Assembly (NCBI GenBank): GCA_964514975.1
Contig: CAZESS010000001.1
Span: forward strand, 55,845 to 119,844
Reading direction: 5' to 3'
Source of the DNA: an uncultured Thermoplasmatales archaeon
Lineage (GTDB): Archaea; Thermoplasmatota; E2; UBA202; DSCA01
DNA: 64,000 bases
A model generated the notes under the pieces. It saw only the letters and a program-made list of their open reading frames with translations, was not told the origin of the DNA and made no database searches. Positions 8,930 to 56,308 of the stretch are shown one piece after another. The first letter of the stretch is position 1. Each line of letters begins with the position of its first letter. The translations under genes were made by a program, and so were the position numbers.

Positions 8930-8958
8930 CTGTAGCAACTTTGCGAGTGCGTGGAAAC

Positions 8959-11900: not shown

Positions 11901-13821
11901 GGTAGGAATCTGGGATCGTGCATGTGATGAGGGAATCATTAAATCGTTGACCATCGATGAAAACGAAGTCAAGAAAAACACCGAATTCGGCATTTTGCTC
12001 GATGACGGGTCTTGGGAATGTCCTAGAAGTGGGAGGACAAATCCTAGTGGCGCTATAGAAAGCGTTAACGTCACAAAAAACATGATTGAAGGCAATGGAG
12101 CGGGTGTTTTTGTTTTTGATATCAATGGAGACACTGAATCAGCAGTCACAATCAACTACAACAACATTAGCAACAACACCTGGGGCATTCAGGTGCATGA
12201 GACCTATCAGGACGACATCGTTGACAACGAGTTCTGGTACAACGGCGACAGTGCCAGCGGAAATGGCGGCGCAATCAATCTCTCTCGGGTCAACGACACC
12301 TATCTCTCCGGAAACACCCTGCGGTACAATTATCACGGCGTATGGATGGAGAACTGCGAGGACAACCTAGTTGAGTACAATGACATCCAACAAACGTTGC
12401 CCGATTGCGATGGGAGTCCCTCTGAGATTCCCCCAATCGGCGTTGTAATTGTTGAGAGTGACTCCTTCAATGTCATCCAGCACAACAACGTTTCCAGTTA
12501 TCCTATTGGAATAGCTTTGGCGGAAACGACGCACGAGAAGGTGAGATACAACGACGTTTCGTTCAACATGTACGGCGTGTTGCTAGCTCAGACTAGCCTC
12601 AGCAATATCATCGGAAACGAGATATACAGCAACAGCGAAGACGGCGTCCTCTTTCAGGAATCCGACCACAATAACCTGACGGGAAACCACATATACGACA
12701 ACACCATCGGCGTGAACTTCACCACCTCTCCCTACAACAACCTGACCGGCAACGACATATTGAACAACGCCGACAAAGGCATCCACCTGTATATGGGTTC
12801 CAGCTACAACAACCTCACCGAAAACTATGTGGCTGACAACAACTACGGCATCTACCTCGAGGGCTCATCGACCACACTCCCCGAAAATATCACCATCCGC
12901 GACTGCGTTGCATCCGGCAACGCAGAGCACGACTTCTTTGCCACCGACCATACAGTCAACACGACGGTCACCAACCTCACCGTGTCCAGCTATCCGACAT
13001 CGGTTGATTTCACCTATGGATATGGCATCGCACTGAAGGGTGTTGCGCATGCAGAGCTGCATCCCAATCCTGGCTACGCTGACATCGGCAAGTTCTTGAA
13101 TATCACCAACGTGACCGCGACCTCGTGGATCAACATCAGCATCCATTACGAGGAGGACGACCTCGACCAAACGGATGAGGATACGCTGATGCTCCATCGG
13201 CTGAACGATACATCATGGGAGCTAGCGAATCCGGACTACGAGATGGTCAACACGGCTGACAACTATCTGCGGGCCAACCTATCCGAGTTCAGCATCTTCG
13301 GCGTGTTCGGTGATTTCACCCGGTACTGGATGAACCTGTCGGAGGGCTGGAACATGGTCACGCTGCCGGTGTGGAACAGCAGCTTCGTCAATGCGCAGGA
13401 TCTCGGCGAATGGATACCGGATTGCACGATGGTATCCCGGTGGAACCCCCAGGAGCAGATGTATGTCACCCATGTGGTTGGCTATGGATCAGGCTTCAAC
13501 CTGGTGAACGGCTCGGGCTACTTTGTATATGTGACCGCGGATGTGTCAAAGGAATACACGGGCATGGGGCAGGCAACGGCGAACCTGACCGTGATGGACG
13601 GCTACAACCTGCTCGGCTGGACGCAGACGATCGATACCAACGCTTCTGCATTGCTGGCATCGATCGAGAACTGCCTGAAGCTCGGCATGTATGACCCGGA
13701 AGATGGATGGCTGCCGCAGTATTTCGCTGGGTCGCCTGCACCGCTGAACTTCGAGGTCGTGGCGGGTGACGGCGTGTTCGTGTACGTCACCACGGGCAGC
13801 AGCACCTGGAACGGCAGCTAG
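8959..13821 (+). CDS. Giant secreted surface protein A (1620 aa): signal peptide, four CarboxypepD_reg-like beta-sandwiches, PKD domain, long right-handed beta-helix (PbH1/NosD-like), shared 284-aa C-terminal tail
   Basis: Signal peptide MKEKIVTLLTVSLLILAGLSSLAG. There are four G-x-V-x-D/N...GYY units (about 9060-10200). The PKD unit is WSWEFGDGSTATG...HSYSDDGSYTVNLTVADDDG (about 10224-10472). From about 10480 there are dozens of N-x-[IV]-x-x-N...G-I turns. The tail starts at 12967. There are many N-x-S/T sequons and no TM anchor. Track start 8941 (TTG) is replaced by ATG 8959. Confidence 0.85.
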   Translation: MKEKIVTLLTVSLLILAGLSSLAGGQSAADSTAPVEGASVNLAWTDGTYTDGNSTSTNATGYYEMNVAEGTVNITVEHSDTQENETLNVKNFTGNFTVADCPSTYWKNITLPAFPQDNATLVGTVYDNSTGDPVEADISISFTGSYFTGSNSTTCATDGSYSIDLPPSEVTVTADATGYYSASNTTTIGEETKTLNVYLEPEPPETATVKGYVTNSDNGTGIENMFLYFSSLNSSYSNYTYSNADGYYECDLAAENFSISPYPDEYFSNSTMFELNDSEVKWVNMSFIPTPPDNAWVEGHVYDNATGSPLANAGVSVSGSSRLDFYNYSHYFNNGTMTNSSGYYNVSIPAVEAVELYTYYKNKTEIYSIYAYKADYFDNSSSGDIIEPGGVMVRDINLTAKPPENCIVKGYINQSGAPSGNTPPSASFTIEPGSISTGETVYFNSTSTDSDGSIASWSWEFGDGSTATGAEVTHSYSDDGSYTVNLTVADDDGASDTASETVTVGADIYVDDDAPDSWYDATHVHTIQEGVDNATAGDTILTEPGEYEENIDIYRSNITLRSSESHEAVINGSVEITADGVTVEGMNITNADYYELPQNSGTVGIYVNQSEDGFEVDLRDNRIAGADYGIYIRDKNEGHGGLATIEGNDITDIEEHAIFFHAHGTYTVEHVTVTNNTITDSVKGIKIYACDQSIIETVTVENNTFKEEKSDKGHAIRVHAGGGWEADEYGGRIDAVTIDNNIVIGEIDSDQGHGIRVHSGYLSRGIGSVDITDNVVEYPGEQGIRVQLHGNSTEEGVTITDNEVTGNDFTKKGIRVDTASSEPGHIITLKDVVVENNLVTEIDGSDKNVIGIRVKAGGYDDATHIENVSVIGNEVTDGAGEGIRVQTGGIDENISTMGTVIVENNTVTDNEERGIRVHAGAGNYSKSSHPDSYPTGSSIDTAIVEGNIVIDNGVIGVRVSAGNNSIVSTATIEDNYVEGHKVGIWDRACDEGIIKSLTIDENEVKKNTEFGILLDDGSWECPRSGRTNPSGAIESVNVTKNMIEGNGAGVFVFDINGDTESAVTINYNNISNNTWGIQVHETYQDDIVDNEFWYNGDSASGNGGAINLSRVNDTYLSGNTLRYNYHGVWMENCEDNLVEYNDIQQTLPDCDGSPSEIPPIGVVIVESDSFNVIQHNNVSSYPIGIALAETTHEKVRYNDVSFNMYGVLLAQTSLSNIIGNEIYSNSEDGVLFQESDHNNLTGNHIYDNTIGVNFTTSPYNNLTGNDILNNADKGIHLYMGSSYNNLTENYVADNNYGIYLEGSSTTLPENITIRDCVASGNAEHDFFATDHTVNTTVTNLTVSSYPTSVDFTYGYGIALKGVAHAELHPNPGYADIGKFLNITNVTATSWINISIHYEEDDLDQTDEDTLMLHRLNDTSWELANPDYEMVNTADNYLRANLSEFSIFGVFGDFTRYWMNLSEGWNMVTLPVWNSSFVNAQDLGEWIPDCTMVSRWNPQEQMYVTHVVGYGSGFNLVNGSGYFVYVTADVSKEYTGMGQATANLTVMDGYNLLGWTQTIDTNASALLASIENCLKLGMYDPEDGWLPQYFAGSPAPLNFEVVAGDGVFVYVTTGSSTWNGS
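11050..11900 (+). repeat. Eight degenerate ~45-50-aa tandem repeats inside gene A (GIRVHAGG-type beta-helix coils)
   Basis: The motif recurs as GHAIRVHAGGG, GHGIRVHSG, QGIRVQLHG, KGIRVDTAS, IGIRVKAGG, EGIRVQTGG, RGIRVHAGAG and IGVRVSAGN. Each is preceded by V-x-[IV]-x-[DN]-N. The boundaries are approximate. Confidence 0.6.
12967..13821 (+). repeat. Copy 1 of the 855-bp 3' cassette shared by genes A, B and C
   Basis: Aligns without gaps to 16759-17613 (offset 3792) and 23335-24189 (offset 10368). The protein runs from VTNLTVSSYPTSVDF to WNGS. Confidence 0.9.
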
Positions 13822-13833
13822 CCCTCCCGCCAC

Positions 13834-13861
13834 TTTTTCCCTCTTTTTTTCTGTGTTTTTA
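13834..13861 (+). terminator. Oligo-T tracts after gene A (archaeal intrinsic-terminator-like)
   Basis: T5, T7 and T5 runs lie within 40 nt of the stop codon, in a pyrimidine-rich stretch (ccctcccgccactttttccctctttttttctgtgttttt). Confidence 0.5.
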
Positions 13862-13935
13862 TTGCAGAGTTAGGAAATTTTAAATACAGAATCCGGGTTT
13901 ATTCTTCACTCCATCGTAGGTAGGAGGCACAGATT

Positions 13936-16900
13936 ATGAAAGCAAGACATGCATATATCTTGGGAATTGTGGGAATAGCCGTGTTCATCGGAGTTATGGC
14001 GATGAACGCCGACGCAAGCGGAACCGAAGTCATATATTCAGATGACTTTGAGGCAGATGACGGTGGTTGGACCCCGTGGGCCAACTGGGATCCGGTTGGT
14101 GACTGGGAATGGACAGACACCTATGATGTCAGTAGTTATGCCGGTAGCCATAATCCGCCGACCGTGGCGCATTCCGGTGATGGTCTCTGGGGCACCGTGC
14201 TCTATGACGACTACACAAACTCCGGTGGCGAGACATACATCAGCAAGACCTTTGACTTTTCCGGCTATTCCAATGTAAACATGACCTTCTGGTACTGGAG
14301 CGACCTCTTCGGCACATGGGACTATGCAAAGCTATATGTCAACGGTGTAGAAGTCTGGTATGTTGACACCCAGCCCGGTACGGCCTGGGAGCAGGCGGCC
14401 ATCGACCTGTCCCCGTGGGACTACATGTCAGATGTCAACGTGACCTTCGAGGTGCATGCTAGCACCGTGGTGAACTATGCCGGCCTGTACATTGACGATT
14501 TCAATCTGACCGGTGTTCTATCACGCTATGTGGACGATGACTTCGATGCCGCCACGCCGGGCTGGGGCACGACACATTTCGACAGCATACAGGATGCCAT
14601 CGATGCTGCCGGCGAGGGCTGCACCATCTATGTCTGGGATGGCCTCTACAATGAGACCAACATCCATGTCGATAAGACCCTGACTATTATCGGAAACACC
14701 ACCGTTGATGCGATGACCGGCGCCGTATCGTGCAACACCAATGTCAACTACACCGACAAGGGTTTCATCGTTAAGGCGGACCATGTCAACATCTCGGGTT
14801 TCAACCTGACCAATAACGGCGTTATCGCTGGGTGTAGAGGCGTGCTGGTCAATCATTCCAGCCACTGTAATATCTCGGGTAACATTATCCAGGAGGACTA
14901 TGATGGCATCAAGCTCAACCACTCGGATGACAACATCGTGTACAACAACATCATCCGCAACCAGTCGATGTATGGCATCTGGCTGAACAATGCCAGCAAC
15001 AACGTGGTCAACTCGAACGGCATCTACAACAATTATATCGGCGTTTTCTATCAGCCAGAGATGATGTATCAGGTCATGCCCGCCTGCTGGAATACAATTG
15101 TGGGGAACAATATATCTCACAACGGCTGGGGCATCGAGATGTTCGGGACATATGAGGATGACATCCTGAGCAACACGTTCTGGTACAACGGGGAGATATC
15201 TGGAGGAAAGACACGTGAAAACGGTGGCCCTGCCGATGGCGGTGCAATCCATCTCCTTATGGCAAATGATACATACATCTCGGGCAATCACATGAAATAC
15301 AATTTTCAGGGCATCTGGATGGAGAACTGCGATGATAATGTGGTGGAGCACAACGAAATCAACCAGTCCATGATCATTCCCAACGGAAATGGTAGGTCCT
15401 ACCATATCTATGTCGAGGGCAAAGAGGGATGGACGCTGGTTGAAACGCTCCATCTTTCTCGCAACTATGAACGAACGACGGTTACGCTTCCATCCGGAGC
15501 AGGCGAATACCGTGTCCGTATCGTGCAGTCCGGCGGCGTGGCAGCTCATGTTGACCAGATGGTGCTGCTTGACGGTGAAACGGTTGTCCCCGTGTCTGCT
15601 GTCTGCGACGGAAGCGACATCGTAGAAAAGCTGTATGCCGTTGATAACGACGTGGCAGATATCTGGGAACGGACAATCGAGCTGACCTGGCAGGGCACTT
15701 TTGTCTCTCCAACACTGCTGCTGGTGGCGAACGAGGAACAGCCAGCCTATATTTCGCCCATCCGTACACCCTCTATTATGCATCCCACTCTGATGGAGTT
15801 GTACACGCTGGAGGACAGTGGTGCTATAATGGTGGACGGCGAGCCCGATGACCTTGCGGTGCCTGATTTTTCCGATTACTGGGCACCGACCAGTGGTCAC
15901 CCTGCCGGAGACACGTTGGTGTGGCTTCGGTCTGATGGCGAGTATCTTTATGGAGCGATGGAGGTAACCGCGGATAACACCTATGACATGACGGGCTGGG
16001 GTTCACTCTACATCGCGACCGATAATGTTGTGCGGGAGTTCCGAGTCGATGCATCCGATGAATCCTACGGCGTTGGTGGTTTTGTATACACCGACACCGT
16101 CGGCTGGCAGCACATGCTCTACGAGTTCCAGATACCGCTGGCGGACATCGATGCCTCCATCGGCGACACCATCCGGGTTGGCTACGGTAGCTACGGGACC
16201 CTTGGGGGTATGCCCGCAGGTGTGCAGATCGATGGCATGGACGGCGATGGCTCCTACAACGTTATCCAGTACAACAATATTTCAGGATATAACTCGGGCA
16301 TATATCTTGTCCACACGGACCATGAAGAAGTTTGGTACAACAACATCTCATCCAATGGATATGGGGTATACATAGATAACACCTGGTATAGCAACGTGAC
16401 ATGCAACCACATCTATAGCAACGGCGACGGTATCTATGCTTACTATGCAGAATACAACAATATCACCGGGAATGATATTGATAACAACCACCATGGGGTT
16501 GGCCTGACATATTATAGCAGGAACAACAATATCGCGGGCAACAATATACAGGATAACACCAACTGGGGTATTGCTCTCCATCCATATGCCGACAACAACC
16601 ATGTAATCGACAACGACATAGCAGCCAACCGCTATGGCATCTACATATCCGGGAATTCCCCCTCTTTTGCACCCGATGGCAATACCATCCTCGACTGCAG
16701 AGCCAGCACCAACACCATGTATGACTTTTACGCAACAAACTACACCTATAACACCGTCGTAACCAACCTCACCGTGTCCAGCTATCCGACATCGGTTGAT
16801 TTCATCTATGGCGACGGCATCGCGTTGAAGGGTGTTGCGCATGCAGAGCTGGCGTTGAATCCGGGCTATGCCGCCATTGACAAGTTCTTGAACATCACCA

Positions 16901-17613
16901 ACGTGACCGCGACCTCGTGGATTAACATCACCATTTATTACGAGCAGGATGACGTTAGCGAGACCGATGAGGATACGCTGGCGTTGCAGCGGCTGAACGG
17001 TACAGCCTGGGAGATGGCGTCTCCGGACTACGAGATGGTCAACATATGTGAAAACTATCTGCGGGCCAACCTATCCGAGTTCAGCATTTTTGGCGTGTTC
17101 GGCAACTTCTCCCGGTACTGGATGAACCTGTCGGAGGGCTGGAACATGGTATCGTTGCCGGTGTGGAACAGCAGCTTCGTCAATGCGCAGGATCTCGGCG
17201 AATGGATACCGGATTGCACGATGGTGTCCCGGTGGAACCCCCAGGAGCAGATGTATGTGACCCATGTTGTTGGCTATGGTTCCGGCTTCCAACTGGTGAA
17301 CGGCTCGGGCTATTTTGTATATGTGACCGCGGACGTGTCAAAGGAATACACGGGCATGGGGCAGGCAATGGTGAACCTGACGGTGATGGACGGCTACAAT
17401 TTGCTCGGTTGGACGCAGACGATCGATACCAATGCATCTGTGTTGCTGGCATCGATCGAGAACTGCCTGAAGCTCGGCATGTATGACCCCTCGCTTGGAT
17501 GGCTGCCGCAGTATTTCGCTGGGTCGCCTGCACCGCTGAACTTCGAGGTCGTGGCGGGCGACGGCGTGTTCGTGTACGTCACCACGGGCAGCAGCGCCTG
17601 GAACGGAACCTAG
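13936..17613 (+). CDS. Giant secreted surface protein B (1225 aa): signal anchor, MAM/jelly-roll-like N-domain, beta-helix interrupted by a non-helix insert, shared C-terminal tail
   Basis: GGAGG lies 9 nt upstream of the ATG. N-terminus is MKARHAYILGIVGIAVFIGVMAMNADA. The jelly-roll-like head reads FEADDGGW...W...YAKLYVNG...GLYIDDFNLTG. The helix starts at RYVDDDFD (14521). The insert spans about 15381-16200. The tail starts at 16759. Confidence 0.85.
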   Translation: MKARHAYILGIVGIAVFIGVMAMNADASGTEVIYSDDFEADDGGWTPWANWDPVGDWEWTDTYDVSSYAGSHNPPTVAHSGDGLWGTVLYDDYTNSGGETYISKTFDFSGYSNVNMTFWYWSDLFGTWDYAKLYVNGVEVWYVDTQPGTAWEQAAIDLSPWDYMSDVNVTFEVHASTVVNYAGLYIDDFNLTGVLSRYVDDDFDAATPGWGTTHFDSIQDAIDAAGEGCTIYVWDGLYNETNIHVDKTLTIIGNTTVDAMTGAVSCNTNVNYTDKGFIVKADHVNISGFNLTNNGVIAGCRGVLVNHSSHCNISGNIIQEDYDGIKLNHSDDNIVYNNIIRNQSMYGIWLNNASNNVVNSNGIYNNYIGVFYQPEMMYQVMPACWNTIVGNNISHNGWGIEMFGTYEDDILSNTFWYNGEISGGKTRENGGPADGGAIHLLMANDTYISGNHMKYNFQGIWMENCDDNVVEHNEINQSMIIPNGNGRSYHIYVEGKEGWTLVETLHLSRNYERTTVTLPSGAGEYRVRIVQSGGVAAHVDQMVLLDGETVVPVSAVCDGSDIVEKLYAVDNDVADIWERTIELTWQGTFVSPTLLLVANEEQPAYISPIRTPSIMHPTLMELYTLEDSGAIMVDGEPDDLAVPDFSDYWAPTSGHPAGDTLVWLRSDGEYLYGAMEVTADNTYDMTGWGSLYIATDNVVREFRVDASDESYGVGGFVYTDTVGWQHMLYEFQIPLADIDASIGDTIRVGYGSYGTLGGMPAGVQIDGMDGDGSYNVIQYNNISGYNSGIYLVHTDHEEVWYNNISSNGYGVYIDNTWYSNVTCNHIYSNGDGIYAYYAEYNNITGNDIDNNHHGVGLTYYSRNNNIAGNNIQDNTNWGIALHPYADNNHVIDNDIAANRYGIYISGNSPSFAPDGNTILDCRASTNTMYDFYATNYTYNTVVTNLTVSSYPTSVDFIYGDGIALKGVAHAELALNPGYAAIDKFLNITNVTATSWINITIYYEQDDVSETDEDTLALQRLNGTAWEMASPDYEMVNICENYLRANLSEFSIFGVFGNFSRYWMNLSEGWNMVSLPVWNSSFVNAQDLGEWIPDCTMVSRWNPQEQMYVTHVVGYGSGFQLVNGSGYFVYVTADVSKEYTGMGQAMVNLTVMDGYNLLGWTQTIDTNASVLLASIENCLKLGMYDPSLGWLPQYFAGSPAPLNFEVVAGDGVFVYVTTGSSAWNGT
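16759..17613 (+). repeat. Copy 2 of the shared 855-bp 3' cassette (the most divergent copy)
   Basis: Same length and frame as copies 1 and 3. Scattered substitutions include ALNPGYAAIDKF, YYEQDDVSETDED and the ending SAWNGT. Confidence 0.9.
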
Positions 17614-17630
17614 CCCCTTCCCCCCTCTCC

Positions 17631-17645
17631 TTTTCCCGTTTTTCT
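17631..17645 (+). terminator. Oligo-T tracts after gene B
   Basis: ccttttcccgtttttctc directly follows the stop codon. The pyrimidine-rich design matches the stretches after genes A and C. Confidence 0.45.
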
Positions 17646-17841
17646 CTCATATTTAAACAGGTAAAAGGCCAGATGGTGGTGAATACTATCCGCCTGAAAA
17701 ACGTTTGCCCCTGTGTTTTATAGCCATTATGTCCTGTATGGCATCTTTCGAGAGTATTTAGATAGGTTTTTATACTATGCACTTGTTATAATGTAATTCC
17801 ATAAACCATGGATATGTATAGGATATAGGAGGAATAAAACC

Positions 17842-20800
17842 ATGAAACGAACAACACATATTTTAGCGATAGCGGGAGTAGTGGCGGTGGCGGCCCTGGC
17901 AGTGATGGCGTTTGGCGCCACGCAGGCAGATGCAGAAACCATAAATGTACCAAGTGACTATTCCGCCATACAGCAAGCAATAGACAATGCCACCAGTGAC
18001 GACACCATTGACATCGCCAGTGGATATACGCATGATGGGACAAGGATTATCGTCGACAAGGATTTGACCATCGAGGGCAACAACGCGGTGATAGATGCAG
18101 GGATAGATATTGAAAGCGGCGCTGACGTCGTCATCAATAATCTCACCATCCAGGATCTCTCTACCGCAGATACCTCATCGTGGTCGGGTCTTTCAACAGC
18201 GGGCTCTGAATGGATTGTGGTCGGTGTGCGAAGCGGAACACTGACAGCGACCAACCTGGACATAACGCAGACAAACACTCTTTCAGCACAATATGTTAAC
18301 CTGGTCGGCATTTCAGTCCAAAACGGCGAGGAGATGACGTTGAACGATTCCACCTTCGATCTTACCAATGTAAACTATAGTCTGACGTACGGTGTCTATG
18401 CTCAGCAGGGGGCGACTGGTGTATCTCTTAATGATAACACATTTAACTTGTGGAGCGAGAGACGGACAATGTTTATCGGAACGGAGTTCTATGCAACCGG
18501 GGAGCAGGTTCCGATACAGATGACGAACAATGTGTTCAATGCGGCCGGCTCTGATTTTGGATACTGGCTGCAGGTTTTCAGTGGTTCGTCAATCACCAGG
18601 GAAATGGTAAATAACTACATTGATGGCAACCTGACCGCCGGGAGAATCTCGCATGTGTATCTTGGAGGATGGTATGACTATATCTCCGGAGGACCATGTG
18701 ACGCTATTATCTACGACGGACAGTCAATACAGACCGCCATTGATGAAGCAAGCCCCGGCCATACAATCTGCGTTGCAGCGGGAACGTACACCGAAAACAT
18801 TGTCATCCCAAAGCCTCTAGTTTTAAAGGGTCCCAATGCTGGTATTGACCCAAATACAGGTAATCGTGTTGCAGAAGCAAACATTACTGCTAAAATTACT
18901 GTAGACGCAAACGATGTGAGCATACTGGGATTCAATATCAGTGACTCTACAGCGATGGATTTCTACAATGGCAACTTGGATAATCTGACGATTTCCTGGA
19001 ATTATATCATCGGGATGAATGATGGAATACAGGTGAACTATTTTGAATGGAGCGGCACGAGCTATGATTCACATAATGTAACCATCAGCCACAATTACAT
19101 CGGTGATATGACGGGAACAGCAACGAGGAGTCCATTTTATATTGGTGGGCTTGTCAGCTCTGATATCTCGTACAACACATTTTCAAATACATTGTGGGGC
19201 GGGATACAGTTAGCTGGTTGTAGCGACCTGGATTTCACCTATAATAGGTTCGTGAATATTACGGAGAAGAAAAGCTACTGGGTCCAGTTCACAAAAGATA
19301 ATGAAAACGTTAGGATACTGTACAATACCGGCATCAACACGACCGGAGGAGTGAAATTGTATGGTAATGATCAAACGGATTACCATATCGATTTTGAAAT
19401 CGCACACAATACGTTTAACTCTCTCGTTCCACCAGATTCTGGGACAGGGAGCCACCAGGAGCCCCATATCACAGTTTGGGACTTCTACGGAGCTTACGCA
19501 GATGGGTTGGATATACATGATAATAAGATAAACCAAGAACTCGATAACCTCATCGCTGGTACGTCATCCACCTCTGCGATGGCATTCTTTGGTGTTCTGG
19601 ACGATATAACGGTACAGAACAATAATTTGACAGTGACAGGGTCCCTTGCCTCTGCTTCAAATTACTATGGGATGTATATCCGTGGGGGGCCCAAGAGTTA
19701 CACCATCCAAGGGAACTCATTCATTGGTTCCTCAGCAGATGGTACGATGGGCATTAAACTGGCTATCAATGAGCATCCTGCATATACTGGATACGCTAGC
19801 GACGGGACAACCGTTTTAATACCATGGTCGCCGTCAGATACTGATATTCAGATTACTCAGAATGCGTTCGATGCATTTGACTACGGGCTGAAATTCTTCC
19901 GAAATTATCCGCAGGAAGACGGCCTGGTGGCAGGTGCTACGGTTGATGTCAACTATAATACAATACAGAACAGTGTTACTGCCGGCATAAGCAATGCAGG
20001 CGGCCAGCAAATTGTGGATGCCACTTACAACTGGTGGGGTCATCCATCCGGGCCGAACCATACCAGCAATCCGTCGAAGGACAACGGCATGGGCGACAAC
20101 GTGAGCGACAACGTCCACTTCTCGCCGTGGCTCAACGCGCCGTATCCTGGCGGCAAGGCCATCGACTACTGGAACCCCATTTCTGTTGATGGCGAGGCAG
20201 ACATTAACGAAAAAGCGAACGCAGACACCACGGTAAATATCACGACCACCGAAGAGCAAAACGTTACCGTCCAGAACTATGTGGGCGACCCCCAACCCGG
20301 TGCAGGCTCCCCGCAGGGTATCGGTCCTATCGGCAAATACGTCAATGTATCCGTCGAGAACGAAACAGCGGTTGAATGGCCGGTGAACATCACCATATAC
20401 TACACTCAGGCGGATCTCGATGCGGCTGGCATCCCCGAGACGATGCTGGCGGCGATGCTCTACTACAACGAGACATCCGGTGATTGGGAGGCATACAACG
20501 ATACCGGCGTCAACACCACGTATTCCGAGGACGGATACGAGGGCTACGTCTGGGCGAACGCCTGGAACAGCGACCAGCTTTCGCCGAAAGCCCAGAGCGG
20601 CTTTACCGATGTGTGGGTGGACGATGACCAAGATCCGAGCTGGTATGACACCCGGCATGTCAGGACCATCCAGGAGGGCATCGGCAACGTCACCGAGGGC
20701 GGCACCGTCCATGTCTGGGATGGCCTGTACAGAGGGACCAACATCCTTGTTGACAAGAGCGTTGACATCATCGGCAACACATCGGTCGACGCGTTGAACG

Positions 20801-23800
20801 GTGCGGTATCATACAATACCAATGTTACCTATACGGACAAGGGCTTCGTCGTCGAGGCGGATTATGTCAACATCACGGGTTTCAACCTGGCCTATTGGGG
20901 AATGAATCCGGCTCCATGTGGCGGCGTGCTGGTCAATCATTCCAGCCACTGTAACATCTCCGGCAACATCATCCAGGATGACGCGGATGGCATCAAGCTC
21001 AACCATTCGGATGACAACATCGTGTACAACAACATCATTTCCGGCCAGTCGGATTTCGGCATCTGGCTGGTGGACGCCGCGAGCAACGTCATCGAGGCGA
21101 ACAACATCACCGACAACTCTTTCGGCATATACTATGAGACGTCTGAACCTGTGCCTGCCTCATGGAACACCATCGTGGCTAACAACATTTCCTCTAACGA
21201 TTACTGGGGCATCTACATGGAGGACACGGACAACGAGACCATCATGTACAACTGGTTTTATGGCAACGGCATCACGGAGGGCGGCGCGGTTTATTTCTGG
21301 GACGTTGAGAACAGCACCGTAGCGGAGAACGAGATGTACGGCAACCTCGAGGGCATCGTGCTGGAGAATTGTTACAATGTGACCGTCGAGTCCAACATCA
21401 TCATCGGGCTGTCTATACCTGACGATGGCGGCGAGACCTACACCGTGTCTGTCAACACGGGCGAGGGATGGGAGGTCTGTGAGGAGCTTCGTTTCCCCCG
21501 ATATTATCGAACTGAGCATGTCAGATTGCCCTCATCGACAGGTGACACCTATCGGGTGCGCATCGAGCAGCATGGCGGCATCGCCGCGCATGTCGACTAT
21601 GTCGCCCTGGGTCGCGGCGCGTTACACACCCCTGACCAGGCCATCGTGCATGGCGACGGGACGAGCGTGATGGACAAGCTGCTTGCCCGGGACAACGACG
21701 TTGCAAGTGCATGGGAGCAAACCATTGAGCTGACCTGGAACGAGCGATTCACTGAGCCCGTGCTGGTGATGGTGGCCAACGAGGAGCAGCCGATGGAGAT
21801 GGAGATACCGCTGCGGACCCCGTCGGTGATGACCCCCGACAACATGGAGCCATATACGCTGCAAAACAACGGCGCCATCGAGGTCGATGGCACACCTGAC
21901 GGGCTGGGTGAGGCTGACTTTTCTGATTTCTGGATGCCCATGAGCGGTCATCCATGGGGAGATACCCAGGTATGGCTTCGCTCGGATGGCGAGTATCTCT
22001 ACGGCGTGATGGACATAACATCGGATAACACCTGGGATGACACCGGCTGGGCGTCGCTCTACGTTGCGGTTGGCGACGAGGTACAGGAGTTCCGGGTTGA
22101 TACTGACGACCAGACCTATGGCACCCCCGGTTTCGTGTACACCGACGCTGTTGCATGGCAGCACGTGTATTACGAGTTCAAAATACCGCTGGCGGACATC
22201 GAGGCCTCCCTCGGTGACACCATCCGTGTTGGCTACGGCAGCTATGGAACAAGTGCGCAGATAATTGGCAGCACCGGTGTTCGCATCAGCGGTGGCCGTA
22301 CCAACAACACCGTCCGAGGCAACGTGCTGGAGGAACACGCCCATGCCATCGCGTTGCAGTGGGTGGATAACGAGACCATCGAGGACAACATTTTGTACAA
22401 TAATTCCTATGGCATATGGGTGGAGATGTGCCGCGATGTCAATGTGACCGGCAACATCATCGACAACGCTCCCGGCTGGGGGGAGGAGGGCATCCATGTA
22501 GCCGATATCGGGATGATGGTTGGCTATCCGGTTGATGAGTATTGCTACAACAACGTCAGCGACAACGTGGTGATGAACTGCTCATATGGCATCTATCTCC
22601 AGTATACCGACAACGAGACCGTGGCGGACAACATCCTGTACAACAACACATATGGCATCTTGCTCGAGGGATGCCGCGACATAGACGTGACCGGCAACCT
22701 GGTCGACAATCCGCCGATGTGGGGAGAGTTTGGCATAGTGGTTACGGACATGTACTTGAACGGAGACACCGCTCCAGAGCGGTGCTTTAACAACCTCAGC
22801 TACAACATGGTTGCAAACAGCTCGTATGGCATCGCCCTTGTATCTACAGATAACGAGACCGTCTATGCCAACACCGTCACTAACTGCACATCATATGGCA
22901 TAGCCCTTGACGCGGTGAGAGATTCCCTTATATGGGACAACGTTCTGACTGCCAACGGGTACTCCTCCATGTATATCAGTCCGGCGAGCGGTATTATGCT
23001 CTATGACTGTTACAATGTGACCGTGCTCTCCAACGATATCAACGGCAGCTTCGTCGGCGATAACGCCGGCATATCCATCATTGGGATGAGCGAGGGCGGA
23101 GGCAGTGTCGAGGGCTCGTACAATACCATTGTGGATAACACGATCTGGCAGTGCTTCGGCGCCATCGCACTATTCGGTACCGACCACGAAACACTTGAGG
23201 GCAACACAATGTATGACAACGGGCAATACGGCATCTACATTGCGGCCTCGTATGACAGCGTTATCGCGAACTGCACGGTGTCCGATACCGCAGGATATGA
23301 CTTCTGGTCTGATTCACCCTCGTATAATAACACGGTCGCCAATCTCACCGTATCGAGTTATCCGACATCGGTTGATTTCACCTATGGCAACGGCATCGCG
23401 TTGAAGGGCGTTGAACATGCAGAGCTGCATCCCAATCCTGGCTACGCTGACATCGGCAAGTTCTTGAATATCACCAACGTGACCGCGACCTCGTGGATCA
23501 ACATCAGCATCCATTACGAGGAGGACGACCTCGACCAAACGGATGAGGATACGCTGATGCTCCATCGGCTGAACGATACATCATGGGAGCTAGCGAATCC
23601 GGACTACGAGATGGTCAACACGGCTGACAACTATCTGCGGGCCAACCTATCCGAGTTCAGCATCTTCGGCGTGTTCGGTGATTTCACCCGGTACTGGATG
23701 AACCTGTCGGAGGGCTGGAACATGGTCACGCTGCCGGTGTGGAACAGCAGCTTCGTCAATGCGCAGGATCTCGGCGAATGGATACCGGATTGCACGATGG

Positions 23801-24189
23801 TATCCCGGTGGAACCCCCAGGAGCAGATGTATGTCACCCATGTGGTTGGCTATGGATCAGGCTTCAACCTGGTGAACGGCTCGGGCTACTTTGTATATGT
23901 GACCGCTGATGTATCCAAGGAATACACGGGCATGGGGCAGGCAATGGTGAACCTGACCGTGATGGACGGCTACAATTTGCTCGGCTGGACGCAGACGATC
24001 GACACCAATGCATCTGCGTTGCTGGCATCGATCGAGAACTGCCTGAAGCTCGGCATGTATGACCCCTCGCTTGGATGGCTGCCGCAGTATTTCGCTGGGT
24101 CGCCTGCACCGCTGAACTTCGAGGTCGTGGCGGGTGACGGCGTGTTCGTGTACGTCACCACGGGCAGCAGCACCTGGAACGGCAGCTAG
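17842..24189 (+). CDS. Giant secreted surface protein C (2115 aa): signal peptide, extra ~900-aa beta-helix region, B-like body including the same insert module, three ~80-aa tandem helix repeats, shared C-terminal tail
   Basis: AGGAGG lies 9 nt upstream of the ATG. Signal peptide MKRTTHILAIAGVVAVAALAVMAFGATQADA. Region 20611-22250 is collinear with gene B 14521-16200, with long near-identical nucleotide stretches such as ggcgtgctggtcaatcattccagccactgtaa. The tail starts at 23335. Confidence 0.85.
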   Translation: MKRTTHILAIAGVVAVAALAVMAFGATQADAETINVPSDYSAIQQAIDNATSDDTIDIASGYTHDGTRIIVDKDLTIEGNNAVIDAGIDIESGADVVINNLTIQDLSTADTSSWSGLSTAGSEWIVVGVRSGTLTATNLDITQTNTLSAQYVNLVGISVQNGEEMTLNDSTFDLTNVNYSLTYGVYAQQGATGVSLNDNTFNLWSERRTMFIGTEFYATGEQVPIQMTNNVFNAAGSDFGYWLQVFSGSSITREMVNNYIDGNLTAGRISHVYLGGWYDYISGGPCDAIIYDGQSIQTAIDEASPGHTICVAAGTYTENIVIPKPLVLKGPNAGIDPNTGNRVAEANITAKITVDANDVSILGFNISDSTAMDFYNGNLDNLTISWNYIIGMNDGIQVNYFEWSGTSYDSHNVTISHNYIGDMTGTATRSPFYIGGLVSSDISYNTFSNTLWGGIQLAGCSDLDFTYNRFVNITEKKSYWVQFTKDNENVRILYNTGINTTGGVKLYGNDQTDYHIDFEIAHNTFNSLVPPDSGTGSHQEPHITVWDFYGAYADGLDIHDNKINQELDNLIAGTSSTSAMAFFGVLDDITVQNNNLTVTGSLASASNYYGMYIRGGPKSYTIQGNSFIGSSADGTMGIKLAINEHPAYTGYASDGTTVLIPWSPSDTDIQITQNAFDAFDYGLKFFRNYPQEDGLVAGATVDVNYNTIQNSVTAGISNAGGQQIVDATYNWWGHPSGPNHTSNPSKDNGMGDNVSDNVHFSPWLNAPYPGGKAIDYWNPISVDGEADINEKANADTTVNITTTEEQNVTVQNYVGDPQPGAGSPQGIGPIGKYVNVSVENETAVEWPVNITIYYTQADLDAAGIPETMLAAMLYYNETSGDWEAYNDTGVNTTYSEDGYEGYVWANAWNSDQLSPKAQSGFTDVWVDDDQDPSWYDTRHVRTIQEGIGNVTEGGTVHVWDGLYRGTNILVDKSVDIIGNTSVDALNGAVSYNTNVTYTDKGFVVEADYVNITGFNLAYWGMNPAPCGGVLVNHSSHCNISGNIIQDDADGIKLNHSDDNIVYNNIISGQSDFGIWLVDAASNVIEANNITDNSFGIYYETSEPVPASWNTIVANNISSNDYWGIYMEDTDNETIMYNWFYGNGITEGGAVYFWDVENSTVAENEMYGNLEGIVLENCYNVTVESNIIIGLSIPDDGGETYTVSVNTGEGWEVCEELRFPRYYRTEHVRLPSSTGDTYRVRIEQHGGIAAHVDYVALGRGALHTPDQAIVHGDGTSVMDKLLARDNDVASAWEQTIELTWNERFTEPVLVMVANEEQPMEMEIPLRTPSVMTPDNMEPYTLQNNGAIEVDGTPDGLGEADFSDFWMPMSGHPWGDTQVWLRSDGEYLYGVMDITSDNTWDDTGWASLYVAVGDEVQEFRVDTDDQTYGTPGFVYTDAVAWQHVYYEFKIPLADIEASLGDTIRVGYGSYGTSAQIIGSTGVRISGGRTNNTVRGNVLEEHAHAIALQWVDNETIEDNILYNNSYGIWVEMCRDVNVTGNIIDNAPGWGEEGIHVADIGMMVGYPVDEYCYNNVSDNVVMNCSYGIYLQYTDNETVADNILYNNTYGILLEGCRDIDVTGNLVDNPPMWGEFGIVVTDMYLNGDTAPERCFNNLSYNMVANSSYGIALVSTDNETVYANTVTNCTSYGIALDAVRDSLIWDNVLTANGYSSMYISPASGIMLYDCYNVTVLSNDINGSFVGDNAGISIIGMSEGGGSVEGSYNTIVDNTIWQCFGAIALFGTDHETLEGNTMYDNGQYGIYIAASYDSVIANCTVSDTAGYDFWSDSPSYNNTVANLTVSSYPTSVDFTYGNGIALKGVEHAELHPNPGYADIGKFLNITNVTATSWINISIHYEEDDLDQTDEDTLMLHRLNDTSWELANPDYEMVNTADNYLRANLSEFSIFGVFGDFTRYWMNLSEGWNMVTLPVWNSSFVNAQDLGEWIPDCTMVSRWNPQEQMYVTHVVGYGSGFNLVNGSGYFVYVTADVSKEYTGMGQAMVNLTVMDGYNLLGWTQTIDTNASALLASIENCLKLGMYDPSLGWLPQYFAGSPAPLNFEVVAGDGVFVYVTTGSSTWNGS
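22366..22960 (+). repeat. About 2.5 tandem copies of a ~240-bp (80-81 aa) unit inside gene C
   Basis: Units begin with gataacgagacc (22366), gacaacgagacc (22609) and gataacgagacc (22849). The protein units are DNETIEDNILYNNSYGIWVEMCRDVNVTGNIIDN..., DNETVADNILYNNTYGILLEGCRDIDVTGNLVDN... and DNETVYANTVTN.... Confidence 0.75.
23335..24189 (+). repeat. Copy 3 of the shared 855-bp 3' cassette (mosaic of copy-1-like and copy-2-like tracts)
   Basis: 23416-23906 reads identical to 13048-13538. Downstream it carries copy-2-type variants (QAMVN, DPSLGW), then the copy-1-type ending STWNGS. Confidence 0.9.
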
Positions 24190-24202: not shown

Positions 24203-24246
24203 TTTTTCCCCTCTCTTTTCTCTTTTTTTCTCCCAAAACCTTTTTT
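24203..24246 (+). terminator. Oligo-T tracts after gene C
   Basis: T5, T4, T7 and T6 runs occur in ctttttcccctctcttttctctttttttctcccaaaacctttttt. Confidence 0.5.
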
Positions 24247-24268
24247 AACGCGCGCTTGATGTCTTAGC

Positions 24269-24847
24269 ATGGCTGACGAGCAGGAGTTACAGCATCTCAG
24301 AGTCGTTCTTGATTACCTTCCCTGTGAGGACTGCGAGCACCGCGTTCCCGAGGAGGAGCGCCGGTACATGTGCTCCATGTGCGGCAGGATCAACAGAAAC
24401 GTTTCAGCGGAGATAGCGGTGCCCCGCTGGCGAACCGAAAACGGCAGCGTTGTCGCAGTGGAGGGCCGTGACATCGAGGAGCTGCGCCCCGAGGTGTCGA
24501 TGAAAACGGAGACGGAGGAGGAACCCGAGGAGCCAGAGGGGCCAGAGGAGGACATGACCGAGGAAATCGAGGTGCTCGAGATTGGCGTCGACGTGCCGGA
24601 GGAGGAAGAGGAACCCGATGAGGAGGAGCTTCCCGAATGGGAAACCGTGGAGGAAACACCGCACACCGTCGGCGAATACACCCTGTACACCAAGGAGGCA
24701 ACCCTGCGAGGCGGACGCAAACAGCAGATATTTTTTTATGCGAAAAAAGAAAAAAAGGATGCCACTCCCTGCGCCAAGCCCGAGGGCTACGATGTCAAGG
24801 TCAACGAAAACACCGGCTTGCCCGTCCTCAAAAAGAAAAAAAAGTAG
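24269..24847 (+). CDS. Hypothetical acidic zinc-ribbon protein (192 aa)
   Basis: CEDCEH...CSMCGR Cys4 motif, a ~70-aa Glu/Pro-rich acidic linker, and a basic C-terminus (PEGYDVKVNENTGLPVLKKKKK). It is 6 nt upstream of queA. Confidence 0.6.
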   Translation: MADEQELQHLRVVLDYLPCEDCEHRVPEEERRYMCSMCGRINRNVSAEIAVPRWRTENGSVVAVEGRDIEELRPEVSMKTETEEEPEEPEGPEEDMTEEIEVLEIGVDVPEEEEEPDEEELPEWETVEETPHTVGEYTLYTKEATLRGGRKQQIFFYAKKEKKDATPCAKPEGYDVKVNENTGLPVLKKKKK

Positions 24848-24853
24848 CCGACA

Positions 24854-25858
24854 ATGCACATCGAGGAGTTCGACTACCCTCTGCCACAGGAGGCTATCGC
24901 GCAGCATCCCGCCATCCCCCGGGACAGCTGCCGCCTGCTCGTCATGGATGACGGCATCCGTCATCATCGTTTCACCGACATCACGGGCTATCTCCACGAG
25001 GGAGACGTCCTGGTGGTCAATGACACCCGGGTCAGGCATGCCCGCATCCACGCCCGGAAGAACACCGGCGGAAAAATCGAGCTGCTCGTGCTCGGGCAGG
25101 AAAACGGCGCATACCGATGCATGATCAAGGGACGCGTCCACGAGGGCACCGCTGTCGAGCTGCCCGACGGCGAAACCGCCACCGTTATCCGCAAAAACGG
25201 TGGCATCTGCCACCTGGACATCCCACACGGGATTGAGCAGCTCGAGGCGATGGGCGAGATGCCGCTGCCACCGTACATCAAAGCCGACCTCGCCGCCGAG
25301 ACAAAGGAGCGATACCAGAGCGTCTACGCCGACGAAAAAGGATCCGTGGCCGCGCCGACAGCCGGCCTGCATTTCACTCCCGAGCTGCTCGACCGCATCC
25401 GCCACAAGGGTGTCACCATCGCCGCCATCACCCTGCACGTCGGCATCGGCACCTTTATGCCCATCCGGGACAGGCACGTCGAAAACCACAGCATGCAGCG
25501 CGAATGGTACCGCATCGATGGGAGAGCAGCCGCAGCCATCAACCGGGCATCGGGCGACGTCATCGCCGTGGGCACCACCACCATCCGGGCGCTGGAGAGC
25601 GCCACCGTAGACGGCGAGGTGCAGCCCGGCGAGCGGAGCACCGACCTGTATATCTATCCCGGATACCGCTGGCAATCGCCGGTCGACGGCATGCTCACCA
25701 ACTTCCATCTGCCGCAGTCCACACCCCTGCTCATGGTCTGTGCCTACGCCGGCAGAGACTGCATCATGCGGGCATACCGGGAGGCGCTCCGGCATGGCTA
25801 CCGGTTTCTCAGCTTCGGCGACGCGATGTATATCCGGGGGGCGCCATGTTCGAGATAG
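24854..25858 (+). CDS. queA: S-adenosylmethionine:tRNA ribosyltransferase-isomerase
   Basis: FDYPLPQEAIAQHP N-terminus, PLPPYIK, YQSVYA...GSVAAPTAGLHFT, TLHVGIGTF, AVGTTTIRALES and FLSFGDAM. The length of 334 aa is typical of QueA. Confidence 0.88.
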   Translation: MHIEEFDYPLPQEAIAQHPAIPRDSCRLLVMDDGIRHHRFTDITGYLHEGDVLVVNDTRVRHARIHARKNTGGKIELLVLGQENGAYRCMIKGRVHEGTAVELPDGETATVIRKNGGICHLDIPHGIEQLEAMGEMPLPPYIKADLAAETKERYQSVYADEKGSVAAPTAGLHFTPELLDRIRHKGVTIAAITLHVGIGTFMPIRDRHVENHSMQREWYRIDGRAAAAINRASGDVIAVGTTTIRALESATVDGEVQPGERSTDLYIYPGYRWQSPVDGMLTNFHLPQSTPLLMVCAYAGRDCIMRAYREALRHGYRFLSFGDAMYIRGAPCSR

Positions 25859-26904
25859 CGGCGGAGCAGGAACAGGCCAGAGCCGGCGTGCTGCACACCA
25901 GCCACGGCGACATTGCCACCCCGGTGTTTTTGCCCGTCGCGACCAAGGGAGCCATCAAGACGCTGACGCCGGAGGAGGCATGGAGGACGGGCAGCAGGAT
26001 GCTCATCGTCAACTCGCTGCATCTCTACCGCCGGGGCATGTCGCGCATCCGGCGTGCCGGCGGCATACACGAGTTCATGCAGTGGAATGGTGCCGTCGTC
26101 AGCGACAGCGGAGGATTCCAGCTGATAAAACAGTTTCCCTGCGAGATAGACACCGACGGCATCCGGTTCACCATGCCCGACGGCTCCAGCGACCTGTTCA
26201 CCCCCGAAAAATCAGTAGCGGTGCAGGAGCAGCTCGGTGTCGACATCGCCCTCGCGCTCGACGACTGCCCGTCCCACCCGGCGGAGCAGGAGCGCGTCGC
26301 CCGGGCGGTCGACACCACCATCAGATGGGCAGAGCGATGCCAGGGCGATGGCCGCTTCGCCATCCTGCAGGGCGGTATCGATGCCGGACAGCGTGTGCGC
26401 TGCGCCCGCGCCATCGCCGGGATGGACTTCGACGGCTACGCCATCGGCGGCCTCTGCATCGGGGAGCCAAAGGACACGATGCACCGCATGGTCGCGGCGA
26501 CCATCCCGCATCTGCCATCCGGGAAGCCCCGCCACCTTATGGGCGTCGGCTCACCCGGGGACATCTGGCGCGCCGTCGCCGCCGGCGTCGACATCTTCGA
26601 CAGCGCCTATCCGACGCGCAACGCCCGGCATGGCACCATTTTCATTCCAGGCGGCAAGGTCAACCTGGGGCGAGCGAAGACATCCGGCAGCGTGATAGAC
26701 GACACATGCGACTGCTACGCCTGCCGGCATTTCAGCCTCGACTACCTCAACCACCTGTTCCGGGAAAAAGACCCGCTTGGGCCGCGGCTGGCGACGGTCC
26801 ACAACCTCACCCATGTCAACCGGGTCGTTGCGGCGGCGCGGGAGCGCATCCTGGCGGGAAAAACGCTAAAAACGAACACGGGCATACAGTTTGATGCTGT
26901 TTGA
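25846..26904 (+). CDS. tgt: tRNA-guanine transglycosylase, short bacterial (queuine/preQ1) type
   Basis: TPVFLPVATKGAIK, VSDSGGFQL, YAIGGLCIGE, LMGVGSPGDI, FDSAYPTRNARHG and the Zn site CDCYACRHFSLDYLNHL. It is 352 aa with no PUA or extra C-terminal domains. ATG 25846 overlaps the queA stop by 13 nt; track start 25504 is rejected. Confidence 0.85.
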   Translation: MFEIAAEQEQARAGVLHTSHGDIATPVFLPVATKGAIKTLTPEEAWRTGSRMLIVNSLHLYRRGMSRIRRAGGIHEFMQWNGAVVSDSGGFQLIKQFPCEIDTDGIRFTMPDGSSDLFTPEKSVAVQEQLGVDIALALDDCPSHPAEQERVARAVDTTIRWAERCQGDGRFAILQGGIDAGQRVRCARAIAGMDFDGYAIGGLCIGEPKDTMHRMVAATIPHLPSGKPRHLMGVGSPGDIWRAVAAGVDIFDSAYPTRNARHGTIFIPGGKVNLGRAKTSGSVIDDTCDCYACRHFSLDYLNHLFREKDPLGPRLATVHNLTHVNRVVAAARERILAGKTLKTNTGIQFDAV

Positions 26905-27607
26905 AACCAATCACGGGGTCATCGTCGCCTGTGACGTCGACACCCATAACGCTTTTGAACATCTCGTCCAGCAGACCTGTCACCTCGAGGGTGTCGTCGG
27001 ATACAAAATCGGTACCCTCCTGGGTCTGACCTATGGCCTCAGGCCGCTCACCGAGATGGTGGCGGAGCACTGCAATCTGCCCGTCATCTACGATCATCAA
27101 AAAGCGGCGACGGACATCCCGCAGATGGGCGAGCCCTTTGCCCGGGTCTGCAAAAACGGTGGCGTCGACAGCGTCATCCTGTTCCCCCAGGCGGGCCCTG
27201 AAACCGAAAAAGCGTTCATCCGGGCCGTCATCGAGCATGACATGGTGCCGATGGTCGGCGGCGAGATGACCCATCCCGGTTATCTCACGGAGGAGCAGGG
27301 ATACATCCGGAGCGACGCGCCACCCGACATGTACCGCCTTGCCGCCCGGCATGATGTATCCTATTTCATCGTCCCCGGCAACCGGCCGGCGGCGCTACAG
27401 CGCTACCATGACCTGCTCACCGGCATTATGGACATGCCGGCGTTCTGCATGCCCGGCATCGGCCGGCAGGGGGGCTCCATCCGCAGCGCCTTCGAGCAGC
27501 TTGGCAGCACGGCGAAATATGCCATTGTGGGCTCCGCCATCTACACGAGCGATGACCCCGAGGCAGCGGCACGTGAGCTGGCCCGGGAAGCCCTGGAGTT
27601 CGAGTGA
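26891..27607 (+). CDS. pyrF: Orotidine 5'-phosphate decarboxylase family protein
   Basis: IVACDV, YKIGT, YDHQKAATDIPQ (D-x-K...D-type), GGEMTHPGY, MPGIGRQGGS and IVGSAIY line up with archaeal PyrF motifs. It overlaps the tgt stop by 14 nt. Confidence 0.7.
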   Translation: MMLFETNHGVIVACDVDTHNAFEHLVQQTCHLEGVVGYKIGTLLGLTYGLRPLTEMVAEHCNLPVIYDHQKAATDIPQMGEPFARVCKNGGVDSVILFPQAGPETEKAFIRAVIEHDMVPMVGGEMTHPGYLTEEQGYIRSDAPPDMYRLAARHDVSYFIVPGNRPAALQRYHDLLTGIMDMPAFCMPGIGRQGGSIRSAFEQLGSTAKYAIVGSAIYTSDDPEAAARELAREALEFE

Positions 27608-55735: not shown

Positions 55736-56308
55736 ATGGGAGATCCAAAGTTTCCACGGAAGAAATACGAGACGCCCAGCCATCCATGGGAAGCCGAGCG
55801 CATCGAACGGGAGCGAGACCTGATGCACAAGTATGGCCTCAAAAACAAGCGCGAGGTCTGGAAGGCCGAGACGTTTCTGCGGAAAATACGCGGCCATGCC
55901 CGCGAGCTCTTCGTCGGCGTCGAGGAAGCACAGACCAAAAAAGAAAAAGAGGAACTGCTGAAGCGCATGGTTTCGCTGGGGATCCTGCCGGCTGACTCCG
56001 GCCTCGACGACATCCTGGCGCTGACCATCGAGGACATCCTGGCGCGGCGGCTGCAGACCCAGGTGTACTATCACGGCCTTGCCTATACGCCGAAGCAGGC
56101 ACGTCAGCTCATCGTTCATGGCCACATTTTGGTCAACGGCCGCAGGGTTCGCGTTCCCTCCTATAAGGTCAGGACGGCGGAGGAGGACACCATTCAATAC
56201 GCCGAGGCGTCGCCGCTCGCCGACGACGTTCACCCGATGCGCCCCAAGGTCGACGAGACCAGGGAGCAGCGGATGGCGATGCACAGCGAGAGCAACGAGG
56301 AGAAATAA
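55736..56308 (+). CDS. rps4: 30S ribosomal protein S4 (uS4)
   Basis: [29 protein letters not shown] and an S4 RNA-binding domain ([27 protein letters not shown]). Confidence 0.92.

Follow-up and report, generated by a model that had tools for sequence, protein, structure and literature searches.

How complete is the genetic equipment for queuosine (Q) synthesis in an archaeon that also carries the genes for archaeosine (G+)? The window analyzed here is a 64,000-nucleotide (nt) stretch of the genome of an uncultured Thermoplasmatales archaeon (positions 55,845 to 119,844 of contig CAZESS010000001.1, assembly GCA_964514975.1), and its forward strand carries a pair of genes for the modification of transfer RNA (tRNA). 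The first, queA (positions 24854..25858), encodes a 334-amino-acid tRNA preQ1(34) S-adenosylmethionine ribosyltransferase-isomerase, identified by profile and structure-sequence matches. The second, tgt (25846..26904, with its ATG at 25846), encodes a bacterial-type tRNA-guanine(34) transglycosylase of 352 amino acids and overlaps queA by 13 nt. Re-reading the open reading frames (ORFs) gave the same two lengths and the same overlap as a preliminary description of this DNA. The operon opens with a third gene on the same strand, ORF192 (24269..24847), which is specific to the host's order and encodes a zinc-ribbon protein of 192 amino acids; its stop codon lies 6 nt before the queA ATG.

The queA product passes profile searches against three models: PF02547 (381 bits) and two equivalog profiles, NF001140 (385.3 bits; cut-off 324) and TIGR00113 (343.3 bits; cut-off 267.45), with an equivalog match that spans residues 1-328. 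Its best match among solved structures is the QueA of Thermotoga maritima (1vky), with which residues 1-327 align end to end (E = 1.9e-84). Judged by these matches, a degenerate QueA is excluded.

The window Tgt groups with bacterial Tgt and away from ArcTGT, the archaeal transglycosylase, by profiles, by structure-sequence matches, and in a tree. It exceeds the cut-off of the equivalog model for Q34 Tgt (TIGR00430, 351.7 bits; cut-off 306.75) and falls far below that of the ArcTGT model (TIGR00432, 132.7 bits; cut-off 350). Among its solved relatives, Escherichia coli Tgt (10fb) is the best match (E = 3e-83) and Pyrococcus ArcTGT (1iq8) the last (E = 2.9e-22). The bacterial-looking motifs singled out in the preliminary description—VSDSGGFQL, GGLCIGE, LMGVGSPGDI, and others—are all found in the translation, and the protein indeed lacks a C-terminal extension, ending after 352 residues with the C1, C2, and PUA domains of ArcTGT absent. 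The window Tgt is thus not the archaeosine enzyme, and a split ArcTGT is excluded.

In the alignment to 10fb, the residues with which E. coli Tgt carries out catalysis and holds substrate and zinc are all retained. The general acid/base Asp lies in VSDSGGFQL, aligned with LTDSGGFQV of the E. coli enzyme, and the nucleophile Asp (FDSAYPTR) in DIFDSAYPTRNARHG, aligned with DMFDCVMPTRNARNG; we take this catalytic pair to be E. coli D89 and D264, respectively. The zinc site (CxCxxC...H) reads CDCYACRHFS ... TVHNL in the window and CDCYTCRNYS ... TIHNL in E. coli, while the substrate Asp and Cys of the FDEC motif occur as LDDC, the form found in 13/13 sequences from the order. The pocket loop is where the enzymes differ: GGLCIGE in the window versus GGLAVGE in E. 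coli, and, by group, GGL(C/S)IGE in the order, GGLSIGE in other Thermoplasmatota, and GGLSVGE in bacteria. Both swaps in the window Tgt (Cys for Ala/Ser and Ile for Val) are conservative. In the eukaryotic queuine enzyme, Gly occupies the pocket's Val/Ile position. Because the window pocket combines a small residue with a bulky aliphatic one after it, it fits a preQ1-type rather than a queuine-type enzyme, and preQ1 would be the Tgt substrate.

Does the genome supply the other steps? Genes for archaeosine and for the rest of the queuosine pathway—arcTGT, arcS, queC/D/E, queF, and queH, the set for which the preliminary description had suggested a search—are all present. A queD-queC-queE cluster lies on contig C12, where QueC scores 211 bits (cut-off 150) and the QueD and QueE matches, below their own equivalog cut-offs, are placed by cluster context. 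A type I QueF is encoded on contig C36 (TIGR03139, 154.5 bits; cut-off 86.9); it has the catalytic Cys, and its ELQSLKLY stretch is similar to what we take to be the NADPH-binding motif of QueF. QueH (PF02677, 206 bits) is on contig C4, apart from queA-tgt on contig C1. Neither QueG (TIGR00276) nor the YhhQ/QPTR transporter (PF02592) has a match in the genome; the last step is therefore assigned to QueH, and the route is read as de novo, not salvage.

The archaeosine branch is represented by ArcTGT (C17:19576-20889, 533 bits) and ArcS (NF040592, 465 bits; cut-off 440), and because ArcS is present, a QueF-like archaeosine synthase is unneeded. Substrates for the queuosine branch are also at hand: of the tRNAs with GUN anticodons, tRNA-Asn(GUU), tRNA-His(GUG), and an intron-bearing tRNA-Tyr(GUA) were found, all with a U33-G34-U35 loop, which is the identity element of bacterial Tgt. 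The gene for tRNA-Tyr, one of these predicted Q substrates, is separated by about 120 bp from that for ArcS, on the opposite strand (C18:27892-29851), probably by coincidence.

How widely is this gene set kept among the host's relatives? We surveyed 39 genomes (14 genera) of the host's order, 158 from the rest of its class, and a phylum sample of 401 genomes. QueA occurs in 34/39 genomes of the order (13/14 genera) and in 1/158 from the rest of the class, there as a contig-end fragment; QueF in 36/39 and, above its cut-off, 0/158; and QueH, counted within the order, in 35/39. QueF and QueH, although unlinked to the queA-tgt pair, therefore co-distribute with it: these physically separate genes come and go together. 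The pair itself is adjacent in all 14 order loci examined (14/14, the window's included), as well as in many other Thermoplasmatota and most Bacillota loci. Across the phylum sample, QueA exceeds its cut-off in 72/401 genomes, which belong to many families and include some closed, single-contig genomes. Several Thermoplasmatota, some of them closed (family f40 and others; e.g., L128 = G380:C1:1395600-1402600, and L129), carry a divergent QueA-like gene with 28-29% identity (E ~1e-33 to 1e-45), below the cut-off and with no adjacent Tgt; it may be a QueA paralogue with no part in queuosine synthesis.

What do the trees say about origin? The nearest relatives of the window QueA are from metagenome-assembled genomes (MAGs) of Thermoplasmatales or Thermoplasmatota archaea (77-80% identity), followed by bacteria (~47%). 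In the QueA tree, the order forms one clade (99 in the Shimodaira-Hasegawa-like approximate likelihood ratio test, SH-aLRT) nested in a Thermoplasmatota clade of 32 rows (95), so that 32/39 archaeal rows stand separate from bacteria; two of the divergent QueA-like sequences (28-29% identical) sit apart on a long branch. In the Tgt tree, from which the window's own row is absent and in which same-genus sequences (82-84% identical) stand in for it, a single branch (100) splits 21/21 Thermoplasmatota rows from 25/25 bacterial rows. Within the genus, the ratio of nonsynonymous to synonymous substitution rates (dN/dS) is 0.21-0.29 for queA and 0.18-0.23 for tgt; by this measure, both genes are under purifying selection. 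These patterns fit an old transfer of the queA-tgt unit from bacteria, probably close to the point from which much of the Thermoplasmatota descends, followed by vertical descent under that selection and by loss in several sister lineages; we infer both the direction and the date of the transfer. The acquisition proposed in the preliminary description is thereby upheld, as an ancient and lineage-wide event rather than a recent one in a single genome.

Taken together, we consider queA-tgt to be the core, at the level of tRNA, of a complete bacterial-type pathway for de novo queuosine synthesis that works beside a native archaeosine pathway, a reading to which we give a probability of roughly 80%. 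Step functions here follow the bacterial pathway as summarized in PMC5699537. QueD, QueE, and QueC (C12) would make preQ0, which ArcTGT would insert at position 15 for conversion to archaeosine by ArcS. In parallel, QueF (C36) would reduce free preQ0 to preQ1; the window Tgt would swap G34 for preQ1 in the GUN tRNAs (Asn, His, Tyr, and presumably Asp); the window QueA would add the epoxycyclopentanediol derived from S-adenosylmethionine, giving epoxyqueuosine (oQ); and QueH (C4) would reduce this to queuosine. The Q34 branch (QueF, Tgt, QueA, and QueH) and the G+15 branch (ArcTGT and ArcS) would thus draw on one preQ0 pool. Across the order, the lineage-specific zinc-ribbon gene leads the pair, which would be transcribed from a promoter of archaeal style. 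The queuosine gene set is intact, long inherited, and probably functional, and enzymatic activity and the identity of the final nucleoside are predicted from it. Of the two options left by the preliminary description, the evidence favors the first, a Q pathway acquired by an archaeon and at work there, and those of its suggested checks that could be run all came out on that side; there is no need to invoke a repurposed pair, given that QueF and QueH share the distribution of queA-tgt without being linked to it.

Several observations weigh against this reading. At position 232, Tgt has a Cys where bacterial enzymes have Ala or Ser. The assembly is of metagenome type and places QueF, QueH, and queCDE on contigs other than that of the pair; what ties them to this organism is binning and their recurrence across the order. 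Neither ARAGORN, run with and without introns, nor the Rfam tRNA model detected a tRNA-Asp(GUC) in the 66 contigs of the assembly, a miss that we read as an assembly gap and not as a true absence. Both trees are quick maximum-likelihood reconstructions with SH-aLRT support and no bootstrap; their bacterial rows are the nearest hits to the query only, they fix neither root nor donor, and three small Thermoplasmatota groups fall without resolution among the bacteria in the QueA tree. Finally, the literature that we searched yielded no biochemical or nucleoside evidence for Q in any archaeon.

What, then, is the gene at the head of the operon? ORF192 begins with a Cys4 zinc-ribbon domain, continues through an acidic Glu/Pro linker, and ends in a basic domain of about 60 amino acids. 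About 24 nt upstream of its ATG is a TATA-like box read from the sequence, TTTTTTAA (24241..24248, + strand), a putative archaeal promoter from which the operon might be transcribed with a short leader or none. In 34/34 queA-bearing genomes of the order, from both families, the gene immediately before queA is a full-length homologue (57-87% identity); the 158 class genomes outside the order yielded none, and no ORF192-like gene stands beside queA in 26 loci from other Thermoplasmatota families. The 5 QueA-less genomes of the order and the 158 other class genomes have only the C-terminal domain (~55 amino acids), in 1-11 copies per genome that form very small ORFs or the tails of larger proteins; the source genome has one extra copy, on contig C10. 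An alignment of 12 homologues has 56 invariant columns, the four Cys among them.

Database and structure searches place little of this protein. ORF192 belongs to no Pfam or NCBIfam family at 1e-3, and at E values up to 5, sub-threshold zinc-ribbon matches appear for the N-terminal domain only, with none for the C-terminal domain. The ESM Atlas gave no usable match. The AlphaFold2 model is poor (mean predicted local distance difference test score, pLDDT, of 56.7), with only its C-terminal beta domain reaching 81-86, and a fold search with VIA-align against 48,161 PDB representatives returned nothing above Z 2.7. Because the linkage to queA is so strict, a functional tie between ORF192 and the Q genes is plausible, although we give it a low probability. 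In the most far-reaching form of this idea, which is tentative and in our view doubtful, the protein would be a third, archaeal component dedicated to the queuosine machinery that was acquired: it might act as a tRNA-binding adaptor or chaperone that fits the bacterial-derived Tgt and QueA to archaeal tRNAs or, alternatively, partition preQ0 between the G+15 and Q34 branches. The linkage itself is new to the present analysis, and, if the proposal were true, Q synthesis would have in ORF192 its first accessory factor specific to a lineage.

On the other side of the pair, a gene of the orotidine monophosphate decarboxylase family (PyrF-like; 26894..27607, + strand) overlaps the tgt stop by 11 nt, which couples the two genes in translation. 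It matches PF00215 at 47 bits and PRK13813 at 69 bits, far below the latter's cut-off of 208, and follows tgt in the loci of family f1. It is probably a co-transcribed neighbour outside the pathway.

Could the enzymes be active and yet make something else? Their product or target might be unlike bacterial Q34: the pathway could stop at preQ1 or epoxyqueuosine, go on to a further Q derivative, or act on another RNA or position, perhaps guided by ORF192. The strict linkage of this order-specific gene to queA (34/34) would suit such a departure, as would the Cys/Ile of the Tgt pocket in place of bacterial Ser/Val and a Tgt C terminus about 20 residues shorter than that of E. coli. However, the catalytic and substrate residues are all conserved, other Thermoplasmatota retain queA-tgt without ORF192, and the co-distribution of unlinked QueF and QueH is expected only if preQ1 is made and oQ reduced. 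We regard an altered product or target as unlikely.

A change of substrate from tRNA to DNA is less probable still. Under this explanation, the pair would have been repurposed, in the manner of Dpd systems, for 7-deazaguanine DNA modification or defence, and such chemistry does seem to be in the organism's gene pool, because a second QueC and a FolE lie in a virus-like island on contig C6, near RusA, a Rad52-like protein, and an SNF2 helicase. The window Tgt, however, fits the equivalog model for tRNA Q34 and is not DpdA-like; no part in DNA modification is known for QueA or QueH; and the pair sits among housekeeping genes, outside islands and at native G+C, so that we consider this very improbable. 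The island spans C6:57300-67000 (L109:4389-14978) on a contig with a G+C of 0.46, versus ~0.59 for the genome, and its second QueC (205.6 bits) and FolE belong to a dense array of small minus-strand ORFs adjoining a tRNA-Arg(TCT), with the RusA, a Rad52-like annealing protein, a UvrD-like helicase, and the SNF2 helicase as neighbours. Its make-up resembles that of a viral or proviral module bearing genes for 7-deazaguanine DNA modification; no DpdA-like TGT was detected in it with PF01702.

Is the host archaeal, and is the contig sound? The source genome comprises 1.96 Mb in 66 contigs, with an estimated completeness of 98.9% and contamination of 2.9%, and the window lies within a contig of 172 kb. 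Upstream of queA-tgt in the window are aRF1 (558 bits) and an archaeal FEN1 (464 bits); downstream are pantoate kinase, PriS, PriL, RNA polymerase subunit D (RpoD), and the RFC large subunit. The archaeal flanks described earlier are thus borne out on both sides, and so is the native base composition of the pair, whose G+C of 0.61-0.64 is like that of the bulk of the window and the genome. The host is a lineage of uncultured Thermoplasmatota that, by gene content, is non-methanogenic, because McrA is absent from 197/197 genomes of its class, a result that also rejects the Methanomassiliicoccales as a candidate identity for the class. An artefact, in which a bacterial fragment was mis-joined into or mis-binned with an archaeal genome, could appeal to the fragmented assembly, its estimated contamination, and the bacterial affinity of the nearest non-archaeal QueA relatives (~47% identity), but it is hardly conceivable in the face of archaeal informational genes on both sides within 64 kb of a 172-kb contig, an operon with archaeal neighbours that is alike in 34/39 genomes of the order, closest relatives in archaeal MAGs at 77-80% identity, and the standing of 32/39 archaeal QueA rows and 21/21 archaeal Tgt rows apart from bacteria. 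With the contig archaeal and the operon recurring across the order, contamination is excluded as the source of queA-tgt. Just upstream of the operon, positions 8941-24189 (+ strand) are taken up by three giant tandem genes for beta-helix/NosD/PKD surface proteins of 1626, 1225, and 2115 amino acids, at a lower G+C of 0.46-0.57.

How does this locus compare with known systems? It shares with the bacterial queA-tgt operon, as seen in Bacillota loci, the gene order, the tight spacing, and the catalytic residues. Identity to the Bacillota proteins is ~47% for QueA and ~41% for Tgt. In Bacillus subtilis, the operon reads ruvAB-queA-tgt-yajC, whereas the window has no ruvAB or yajC neighbours, archaeal flanks, and an apparent archaeal TATA-type promoter; its Tgt is also ~20 amino acids shorter than that of E. 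coli and carries GGLCIGE instead of GGLSVGE. The pathway as a whole resembles the type found in T. maritima and Lactococcus lactis, with a type I QueF, Tgt, QueA, and, as the last enzyme, QueH (DUF208, PF02677) and not the cobalamin-dependent QueG, but here the host is archaeal and the preQ0 supply is shared with ArcTGT and ArcS. With the archaeosine pathway (ArcTGT, TIGR00432; ArcS, NF040592), both of whose enzymes are also in the genome, the window Tgt has in common the TGT superfamily fold and, through its pathway, the preQ0 precursor.

The closest precedents are archaeal. Castelle et al. 2021 (PMC8204110) report QueA, QueH, and Tgt in 34 archaeal genomes—12 of them DPANN, with Methanosarcinales named among the others—and interpret them, from genome data only, as a laterally acquired queuosine pathway. 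In view of that paper, the premise of the preliminary description that Q genes are foreign to archaea is outdated. As in the gene sets presented there, a bacterial-type Tgt, QueA, and QueH occur here in genuine archaeal genomes and are known from genes alone. The present case differs from those gene sets in several respects: QueH, on C4, is not co-localized with queA-tgt on C1; QueF and queCDE are present too, so the route is de novo rather than confined to the last three steps; and the trait is near-universal in a Thermoplasmatota order, with an order-specific zinc-ribbon gene leading the operon. The lineage is therefore a new host for a published, genome-only phenomenon, with a pathway more complete than that first published.

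What does this mean for tRNA modification in archaea? In reviews, queuosine is still presented as a modification of Bacteria and Eukarya and archaeosine as one of Archaea, and a 2026 preprint by the groups of de Crecy-Lagard and Hutinet assigns Q and G+ in the same way. Here, the five Q-specific steps are all kept by an entire archaeal order, and QueA persists in many further families of the phylum. The locus itself is of incremental value; of higher interest is the general prediction of archaea that carry both Q34 and G+15. Unlinked genes that travel together and remain under purifying selection strongly predict archaeal tRNAs with both modifications, made from one preQ0 pool. Such organisms would offer a natural system for asking how one precursor serves two transglycosylases and how a bacterial machinery for anticodon modification was fitted to archaeal tRNAs.

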